This document shows, in pieces, positions 35,565-36,175 of a stretch of DNA of 41,292 bases (positions are counted from its first letter, which is position 1; each line of letters begins with the position of its first letter). Made by a program: the position numbers and the translations under genes. The stretch lies in IMG/VR virus record IMGVR_UViG_2718217862_000001; one strand, 5' to 3'. Origin of the DNA: a virus. Taxonomy: Duplodnaviria > Heunggongvirae > Uroviricota > Caudoviricetes. The notes beneath the pieces are model-generated. The model saw only the letters and a list, made by a program, of their open reading frames with translations, was not told the DNA's origin and did no database searches.

Positions 35565-35882
35565 TCATTCATTCCCTCACCCCATCCTACAGAATGCAGG
35601 GCAATACTTCGAGTTACCAGGCAGTGGTCAGGGGTTAAGTAGCCAGCCCGAGGCGTAAGAACATGACGGCAGGGTTCAACTTTAATAACTATGCAGCAGG
35701 TTTTTGTTCCGCTACCCCGGCGTTAAGGGGAAACAGAGGATTTCTCAGTGGGCGAAGTCAAACATCAGAATGGAAGGCGTCCAGGGATCAGCAAAGAAAC
35801 AGCGATGGCGCTTTATATTGATATCAGCGCCATTGCCGGACAGGTAAGAATTATCAGAGCGGTAACTAAGCGGTATGCGCCT

Positions 35883-36083
35883 TTACTTCAGAAAGTCTCT
35901 GGTGAGTGCACCGAAGATATTGTCAACGATTTCGTCATCAAACTGCGAGGACTCATCTTCAGTTACAAGGTGACCACAATTTTTGCAGATGGCTCCCGCG
36001 AAACTGTCAGAGCCCTGCGGTTTAAAGGATGTGTCAAAGACTTCGCCACCACATTCTGGGCAAGAAAACTTGATTGTATTCAT
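35883..36083 (-). CDS. Small zinc-ribbon protein (CxxCG-22-CxxCG), acidic C-terminus
   Basis: 66 aa from MNTIKFSCPECGG...CKNCGH; RBS GAGAGGAAA; oriented against the early-left operon. Confidence 0.5.
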   Translation of the reverse strand: MNTIKFSCPECGGEVFDTSFKPQGSDSFAGAICKNCGHLVTEDESSQFDDEIVDNIFGALTRDFLK

Positions 36084-36175
36084 AACCAATTTCCTCTCGA
36101 GTAACAGACCCCTCAGAGGATACCACCTCGCCTGACGTGGTTAAAAGCAGGCAACGCTAACCACAAGGAGCCGAC

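Follow-up and report, generated by a model that had tools for sequence, protein, structure and literature searches.

A zinc-ribbon gene and the longer reading frame opposite it: a candidate nested antisense gene pair in the early operons of lambdoid prophages

Long antisense overlaps between protein-coding genes are few in bacteria and phages, and those proposed are disputed. The closest described systems are the antisense overlapping pairs ano/ECs2385 and asa in enterohaemorrhagic Escherichia coli (EHEC) (PMC5960689, PMC6294744), three further genes in EDL933 (PMC9927249), and olg1/olg2 in Pseudomonas aeruginosa (PMC8850804). According to the abstracts of these papers, the embedded open reading frames (ORFs) are newly found or evolutionarily novel and lie within long-annotated genes (PMC5960689, PMC6294744, PMC9927249, PMC8850804); the locus described here is mentioned in none of the papers. 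This locus is part of a 41,292-nucleotide viral DNA (Caudoviricetes; IMG/VR record IMGVR_UViG_2718217862_000001), referred to in its full length as the window, which is a lambdoid prophage of the dicB type. A gene for a 66-residue zinc-ribbon protein on the minus strand is wholly contained in a longer ORF on the plus strand, and on balance we favor, from sequence comparisons, the reading that the two constitute a nested antisense gene pair whose members would be expressed reciprocally.

The locus resembles the ano, asa, EDL933, and olg1/olg2 cases in having a nested antisense ORF, elements that look like promoters, Shine-Dalgarno (SD) sequences and terminators, and signs of purifying selection on both frames. 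It differs in that the embedded gene belongs here to the wider family and the enclosing ORF to what is apparently the narrower one. Both partners are also short, conserved across genera, and carried as a mobile module, and whereas the published pairs rest on Ribo-seq, the present pair rests on comparative evidence. Each partner is catalogued on its own. The zinc-ribbon protein is a member of NCBIfam family NF047912, whose description makes no reference to an opposite-strand gene, and the plus-strand protein is a member of phrog_21318, which was compiled independently of NF047912 from the opposite strand of the same DNA. Public records annotate this DNA on opposite strands, the NCBI pipeline (PGAP) calling the zinc-ribbon ORF and PHROGs the plus-strand ORF.

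Three other systems of lambdoid phages invite comparison with the zinc-ribbon gene. In phage lambda, rexAB lies between cI and pL, is co-transcribed with cI, and is expressed in the lysogen. A preliminary description of this DNA, made from its letters alone, had placed the zinc-ribbon gene in the slot that lambda uses for rexAB. Both are accessory genes of the immunity region, with expression in the lysogen predicted for the zinc-ribbon gene. However, the interval between repressor and early promoter in the window (35452-35535) is an empty 84 nucleotides, and the zinc-ribbon gene instead lies downstream of that promoter, inside the early operon, convergent with the repressor and behind a promoter-like element of its own; it shares no sequence similarity with rexAB. 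The sieB gene of lambdoid phages, which is expressed in the lysogen, is the better positional analogue. It opposes the early-left operon in phage 666R9 and, in an Enterobacter prophage, adjoins the zinc-ribbon gene on the same strand, although there is no sequence similarity and the SieB genes encode 166 and 203 residues, in contrast to an acidic zinc ribbon of 66. Lar, a small cysteine-rich protein of the Rac prophage, is comparable as a small CxxC...CxxC protein of lambdoid prophages. Assignment of the zinc-ribbon protein to Lar-like restriction alleviation (phrog_6422) was considered and rejected (E 0.0098, with no stretch passing alone), and it is not a member of that family.

We regard the zinc-ribbon gene as very likely real. 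The preliminary description had reported a 66-residue minus-strand ORF between the repressor and ydfC, with two CxxCG motifs and an acidic tail, and all of these features were recovered; the spacer it gave as 22 residues is 20. Cysteines occupy positions 8, 11, 33, and 36 (CPECG, 20 residues, CKNCG), with 21 residues from C11 to C33, and the protein carries twelve Asp or Glu against five Lys or Arg, residues 42-54 (EDESSQFDDEIVD) being strongly acidic. An alternative start, TTG at 36089, would give 68 residues. The protein passes the cut-off of NF047912 (57.3 bits against 37, E 1e-15, profile positions 1-56 of 60), the "ECs_2282 family putative zinc-binding protein" named after a locus tag of E. 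coli O157:H7 Sakai, and PGAP calls the ORF in most E. coli genomes, under this name in the many whose DNA is identical. A literature search by locus tag, accessions, and family name returned nothing relevant, and NF047912 has no assigned function. The gene is thus already catalogued and, on its own, ordinary and known.

An exhaustive profile search recovered 81 representative clusters of similar proteins, mostly of 63-75 residues. The match spans at least the greater part of each protein, and a helix comes after the pattern they share, CPxCG-x20-CxxCG-xxxTxDD. In enterobacterial homologues of 59-70% identity the ORF is exactly 66 codons in each, with start and stop fixed. C8, C11, C33, and C36 are present in every sequence with an intact frame (one frameshifted sequence excepted); among 84 family members C33 and C36 do not vary, and conservation of C8 and C11 is 90% or more. 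The protein therefore has the two CxxC knuckles, about 20 residues apart and conserved in the family, that define a C4 zinc-ribbon motif. Single-protein scans of viral sequences for distant members gave nothing or weak partial matches (one inside a large helicase-like ORF), near-identical copies from E. coli filled the output of a viral scan made with the family alignment, and a scan of genome contigs for relatives gave two spurious loci.

Structural and functional searches were less informative. AlphaFold models built from alignments of 7 and 84 sequences had a mean predicted local distance difference test (pLDDT) score of 58. Foldseek found no significant match of this low-confidence model in the PDB, the weak top matches being mostly zinc-ribbon or other cysteine-rich zinc-binding proteins. 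A PDB sequence-profile search gave generic weak zinc-ribbon matches together with spurious matches of T4 lysozyme to the helix, and Pfam gave sub-threshold zinc-ribbon families only. The preliminary description had remarked that exclusion or defence genes often occupy this position, a role that for the zinc-ribbon gene would be hypothetical; in PADLOC-DB the zinc-ribbon protein had insignificant matches only (PDC-M14A, E 0.0019; MTase_II, E 0.009) and the plus-strand protein had none. The acidic tail that accompanies the zinc ribbon hints at a role in binding proteins.

The plus-strand ORF also appears to be a genuine gene, which we consider likely, rather than just a shadow of its partner. 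From the conserved ATG it encodes a protein that matches phrog_21318 over its full length (E 8.8e-67; residues 20-118 of the longer form against profile positions 1-99 of 99), as do relatives from Citrobacter and metagenomes. Both ORFs are intact and conserved across diverged relatives: in 13 of 13 diverged lineages with DNA available, down to 45% identity of the zinc-ribbon protein, the plus-strand ORF is open and its start position conserved. These lineages come from Escherichia, Citrobacter, Klebsiella, Enterobacter, and metagenomes, and include an outgroup (P0034) and a P0035-like locus (L111). A profile search with the plus-strand family extends to relatives of 37% identity, and at 37-48% identity the N-terminal segment still reads as protein, roughly TLQVDxSAxxAQTKxIAEVxKxFEPLL. 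In one distant member (P0131 compared with P0133) a four-residue gap falls in the part that overlaps the zinc-ribbon tail; such a 12-nucleotide change in a codon-on-codon overlap would keep both frames intact.

Further evidence comes from the 26 N-terminal plus-strand codons that lie outside the zinc-ribbon ORF. Changes there number 25, 19, and 46 at codon positions 1, 2, and 3 (Mann-Whitney p 4e-5), and the ratio of nonsynonymous to synonymous change (pN/pS) is 0.42 (bootstrap confidence interval (CI) 0.30-0.58). The periodicity is kept in the 51 nucleotides of this segment that exclude an RNA hairpin (17/14/32, p 3e-4), and just 5' of the conserved start there is none (26/32/28). All four codons occur at one Gly and at one Ala position, and AGA, CGA, and CGC all occur at one Arg position. 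The preliminary description had noted a 118-residue plus-strand ORF with a decent ribosome binding site, and this form is indeed present, running from GTG 35748 to 36104 with AGAGGA (35735-35740) 7 nucleotides upstream. Outside the E. coli clade, most lineages have an SD sequence ahead of a plus-strand start codon; within the clade, most members have one ahead of the upstream GTG.

Within the overlap, the two ORFs run codon on codon with position 1 opposite position 3. Shadow ORFs are commonest in this register, so the ambiguity of strand is real, and the caution of the preliminary description on strand assignment was justified. Selection on the zinc-ribbon frame is readily seen. Its pN/pS of 0.33 is the lowest of the six frames, changes in core codons 8-49 number 17, 9, and 33 at its positions 1, 2, and 3, and pNN/pSN is 0.30 (CI 0.20-0.43), where the letters give the effect of a change (N, nonsynonymous; S, synonymous) in the zinc-ribbon and plus frames in turn. 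Opposite the four Cys codons the plus-strand protein varies only between A and T, corresponding to the TGC and TGT synonyms, and variable sites that are synonymous for the zinc ribbon and nonsynonymous for the plus frame outnumber the reverse class by 27 to 11. From these alignments the zinc-ribbon frame is judged to be the dominant one within the overlap, in the Cys-bearing core.

Selection on the plus frame is also detectable there. Its pNN/pNS, an OLGenie-like statistic for this register, is 0.45 (CI 0.32-0.60), compared with 0.72-0.87 for the shadow frames of five informative single-coding genes from the same loci. A first and more diverged control pass gave 0.82-0.86; a sixth control, ydfC, was too similar to be informative, and one made of DicB and YdfD spanned a frame change and was disregarded. 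In addition, none of 33 distinct Leu or Ser codon states at zinc-ribbon codons 3-66, taken from 26 distinct DNAs, is TTA, CTA, or TCA, each of which would give a stop in the plus frame (naive P 0.002-0.005), although the gene otherwise uses codons ending in A freely. TCA is confined to codon 2 of three lineages, and there it forms the stop of the plus-strand ORF itself. These DNAs came from searches based on the zinc-ribbon protein, and the sample is therefore unbiased for plus-strand integrity. By comparative analysis, with few controls and a small region, both frames are thus shown to evolve as if under purifying selection. The either/or framing of strand in the preliminary description was accordingly too simple, and the comparison of related prophages that it proposed finds the zinc-ribbon frame conserved alongside the plus frame.

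Alleles in close relatives point the same way for the plus strand. Among 87 loci of the E. coli clade, the plus-strand ORF is intact in all 87, whereas two nonsense alleles of independent origin cut the zinc-ribbon ORF short in 20. One, E14* (window position 36044, C>A), is found in copies from O157:H7, O55:H7, O145, and O111 (for example L093, from E. coli O157:H7 146N4), and the other affects codon 44 (L091). Annotation pipelines permit one gene per locus, and PGAP switches strand when the zinc-ribbon ORF gains a nonsense codon: in E14* copies it calls the plus-strand 99-residue ORF, as a "hypothetical protein" (WP_001240336.1).

Several observations weigh against a nested pair. The ATG at 35805 lacks a good SD sequence in the E. 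coli clade, the extension from the GTG shows no protein-level constraint, and the plus-strand family has no domain, structural, or functional match in Pfam or in a PDB sequence-profile search. The conserved 84 nucleotides 3' of the zinc-ribbon stop are in part an RNA hairpin, which explains some of their conservation. An open antisense frame is not rare, and the raw pattern of the overlap, with position 3 of the zinc-ribbon frame the most variable, is what selection on that frame alone would produce. The evidence for the plus frame in the overlap, a small region, consists of a ratio set against a handful of controls and of stop avoidance, whose probability assumes independent codon states. Finally, the promoter-like element of the zinc-ribbon gene matches at 8 of 12 positions, below the threshold of a simple promoter scan, which missed it.

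The best surviving alternative takes most of these points together: only the zinc-ribbon gene would be real, the plus-strand ORF would be a chance-open shadow, and the conserved DNA past the zinc-ribbon stop would be a 3' untranslated region (UTR) with a terminator. It has on its side the lowest pN/pS of the overlap, the covariation of the hairpin, two distant zinc-ribbon loci in which the antisense frame is open too although the plus-type N-terminus is lacking, the small number of Leu and Ser codons in the zinc-ribbon protein, and the preference of PGAP for this ORF; the plus-strand family also seems the narrower, though the searches were unequal in sensitivity. Against it stand the third-position excess and low pN/pS outside the zinc-ribbon ORF, the persistence of the excess off the hairpin and the lack of periodicity upstream of the start, together with the synonymous codons used at Arg, Gly, and Ala positions and the protein-like N-terminus of remote relatives. 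The absence of shadow stops, a plus-frame pNN/pNS below every control, the lack of plus-frame nonsense alleles in the E. coli clade where the zinc-ribbon frame has two, and a constant orientation relative to the operon also speak against it. We therefore consider this alternative unlikely, though it deserves to be taken seriously.

The minus strand carries signals appropriate for a gene. Its promoter-like element, which contains an inverted repeat (ACCAC-N10-GTGGT), is kept 5' of the zinc-ribbon ATG in E. coli, Citrobacter, Klebsiella, and Enterobacter lineages and in the 45%-identical outgroup, in the cross-lineage form TT(A/C)A(C/T)C, 16 nucleotides, TGG-TATC(C/T)T. We infer a promoter function from this conservation. 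At the SD position other lineages have GAAGGA or GAGGAGG. About 45 nucleotides past the stop is a hairpin (-19.2 kcal/mol, z -3.1) with a consensus in 11 lineages and compensatory changes at three of its eight pairs; it is a candidate intrinsic terminator, although other lineages have a less canonical U tract. One arm of the hairpin contains the conserved plus-strand ATG (35805-35807). A hairpin in the 5' UTR of the zinc-ribbon mRNA is not claimed, as its 5' arm overlaps the -10 element in the window. Together with the NF047912 match, the 81 clusters and the low pN/pS, these signals bear out the proposal of the preliminary description that a conserved gene runs against the early operon. Its convergence with the repressor was likewise confirmed, as was its antisense position to the TTGACC-17-TAAACT promoter, which a promoter scan found as well; as a whole, the interpretation offered in that description is partly supported.

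The two ORFs travel together. The module is about 370 base pairs, comprising some 75 nucleotides 5' of the zinc-ribbon ATG, the 201-nucleotide ORF and some 90 nucleotides 3' of it, and shows mosaic behavior; a match covering at least 80% of it occurs in 937 of 5426 complete E. coli genomes. It was found in three settings. In E. coli it heads the dicB-type early-left operon, sometimes downstream of an inserted toxin-antitoxin pair; in Citrobacter, Klebsiella, and Enterobacter it lies in early-left operons with other neighbors, once adjoining sieB; and in three lineages it lies in the rightward (pR) operon right after cro. In all settings the plus-strand ORF is co-directional with the operon and the zinc-ribbon gene opposed to it. 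Comparative analysis shows that the module passes as a whole from one early operon to another among lambdoid prophages, and its products are most likely, from their predicted sequences, a 66-residue zinc-ribbon protein from the minus strand and a basic protein of 93-118 residues from the plus strand. Two relatives carry a toxin-antitoxin pair between repressor and module, PaaA2/ParE in one (L097, 2031-2509) and HigB with a helix-turn-helix (HTH) protein in the other (L098, 2057-2721), and these insertions mark the interval as a hot spot for cargo.

The promoter-like element has a wider distribution than the module. About 1000 other E. coli genomes share it as a 37-nucleotide element (36117-36153), as do two PLSDB records that carry the label Proteus mirabilis, and all of these lack the zinc-ribbon module. 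In one such locus (L094) the element (2501-2537) precedes an unannotated minus-strand ORF (2146-2466) of 106 residues with long hydrophobic stretches, for which no family match was found. The presence of the element 5' of a different minus-strand ORF at the same position fits a portable promoter for cargo expressed in the lysogen, and suggests that the antisense cargo at the position of the zinc-ribbon gene may be interchangeable.

This distribution bears on a second alternative, that the output of the minus strand acts mainly as RNA. A constitutive antisense transcript would then serve as a safety catch on leaky transcription of DicF and DicB, through interference and pairing, and the peptide would be secondary. 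The zinc-ribbon gene always opposes the early operon, in other E. coli prophages the same 37-nucleotide element lies ahead of another antisense cargo at the corresponding position, and DicB and DicF are toxic when overexpressed (bioRxiv 10.1101/2023.04.14.536235), all of which would suit such a role. However, purifying selection on the peptide is clear, its protein family is wide, and some operons that carry the module have neither dicB nor DicF. A further point against it is that the O157:H7 nonsense alleles leave the transcript intact, so that loss of the protein there is indistinguishable from neutrality. We think it quite improbable that RNA is the main output. That only the plus-strand gene is real, the zinc-ribbon ORF being a conserved shadow mis-modelled by NCBIfam, is scarcely credible: a conserved protein also keeps its antisense translation, and the plus-strand ORF is never disrupted while its partner is truncated in E. 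coli-clade loci including O157:H7, but changes concentrate at zinc-ribbon third positions, which are plus first positions, opposite to what this predicts, and the four invariant cysteines with their TGC/TGT flips, the fixed start, stop and 66-codon length across enterobacterial lineages, the much wider family of roughly 66-residue CPxCG zinc ribbons (some at loci without a plus-type N-terminus), and the gene's own conserved promoter-like element, SD sequence and hairpin all contradict it.

For the nested pair that we favor, the arrangement of signals suggests how the two genes might be expressed. In the lysogen the repressor would shut the early promoter (35536-35564), and the zinc-ribbon gene would be transcribed leftward from its own putative sigma-70-type promoter (36144-36117), with the hairpin (35836-35802) stopping the transcript before it reaches the early promoter. 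The small acidic protein probably works through binding to a partner protein, in the manner of other accessory genes of this region that are expressed in the lysogen ("morons"). On induction, strong early transcription would cross the module, and the plus-strand protein would be translated from the operon's first cistron. At this stage the zinc-ribbon gene should be silenced through convergent transcription and pairing of the sense and antisense RNAs, in which case the two products would be made in mutually exclusive states.

A more speculative extension, to which we give little weight, is that the products form a functional couple, the acidic zinc-ribbon protein being confined to the lysogen and the basic plus-strand protein to the time after induction, with the antisense arrangement as the switch. 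One might antagonize or replace the other, for example if a lysogen-phase exclusion or host-modulating factor were cancelled upon lytic entry, and the longer ORF could have been overprinted on an older zinc-ribbon gene.

What is of interest here is a good comparative case for bidirectional coding, and not the zinc-ribbon gene itself. The module is small, and stops in one frame that are silent in the other can be designed, which makes it a clean system for testing bidirectional coding. It occupies the first position of the DicF/DicB operon and may also bear on the silencing of these toxic prophage products. The features of the locus and its surroundings are collected in Table 1.

Table 1. Positions of features at the nested locus and in the adjoining early region (coordinates of the window)
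Feature	Position	Strand	Remarks
Cro-like gene	34479-34769	-	
Repressor gene	34813-35451	+	HTH and S24 peptidase; convergent with zinc-ribbon gene
Operator-like sequence TATCAAAAC	35519-35527		9 nt 5' of the early-left -35; one mismatch to the AATCAAAAC-type repeat
Early-left promoter, dicBp/pL-like	35536-35564	+	TTGACC-17-TAAACT; promoter scan, 9/12 matches
Conserved leader of early-left transcript	35578-35733	+	Ends in motif GTTCCGCTACCCCGGCGTTAAGGGGAAA at 35706-35733, just 5' of first cistron
Possible 19-codon N-terminal extension	35748-35804	+	From GTG 35748, giving the 118-aa form; E. coli clade only
3' hairpin of zinc-ribbon transcript	35791-35836	-	Arms 35836-35826 and 35812-35802, then U-rich run UGUUUCUUUGC
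Plus-strand ORF	35805-36104	+	99 aa from conserved ATG; contains whole zinc-ribbon ORF antisense; phrog_21318
Zinc-ribbon gene	35883-36083	-	ATG start, 66 aa; stop codon 35883-35885; acidic C-terminal part
SD sequence of zinc-ribbon gene, AGAGGAAA	36090-36097	-	6 nt 5' of ATG
Promoter-like element of zinc-ribbon gene	36117-36144	-	-35 TTAACC 36144-36139; 16-nt spacer ending TGG; -10 TATCCT 36122-36117
ydfC	36176-36394	+	Early-left gene downstream of locus
DicF small RNA (sRNA)	36737-36788	+	Early-left gene downstream of locus
dicB	36963-37151	+	Early-left gene downstream of locus
ydfD	37148-37339	+	Early-left gene downstream of locus

The early-left promoter would drive the plus-strand ORF together with the ydfC-DicF-dicB operon; a gene for an 813-residue exonuclease comes last in the listed order, after ydfD. 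Between the Cro-like gene and the repressor (34758-34812) are three AATCAAAAC-type repeats with a spacing of 23 base pairs, and these, together with the TATCAAAAC copy near the early promoter, are candidate repressor operators. The 156-nucleotide leader of the early-left transcript is 76-97% conserved across phages, and GTTCCGCTACCCCGGCGTTAAGGGGAAA hardly varies just 5' of the first cistron among six dicB-type early-left leaders that have otherwise diverged, one of them from an Actinobacillus phage. An Rfam search with the leader gave no match, and its single-sequence fold is of unexceptional stability. The motif may serve in processing, or as a site resembling nut or put.

At the locus and leader, Rfam gave nothing besides DicF and a sub-threshold STnc100-like match (38.8 bits against a cut-off of 47) between DicF and dicB (36800-36940, plus strand). 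Two full copies of the STnc100 sRNA are present elsewhere in the prophage on the minus strand (26596-26784 and 27060-27253), as are a sok antitoxin RNA of a hok/sok-type module (30678-30853) and a tRNA gene (27607-27679). The left end of the window (1-72, plus strand) carries a truncated ALIL pseudoknot, an insertion-sequence frameshift element.

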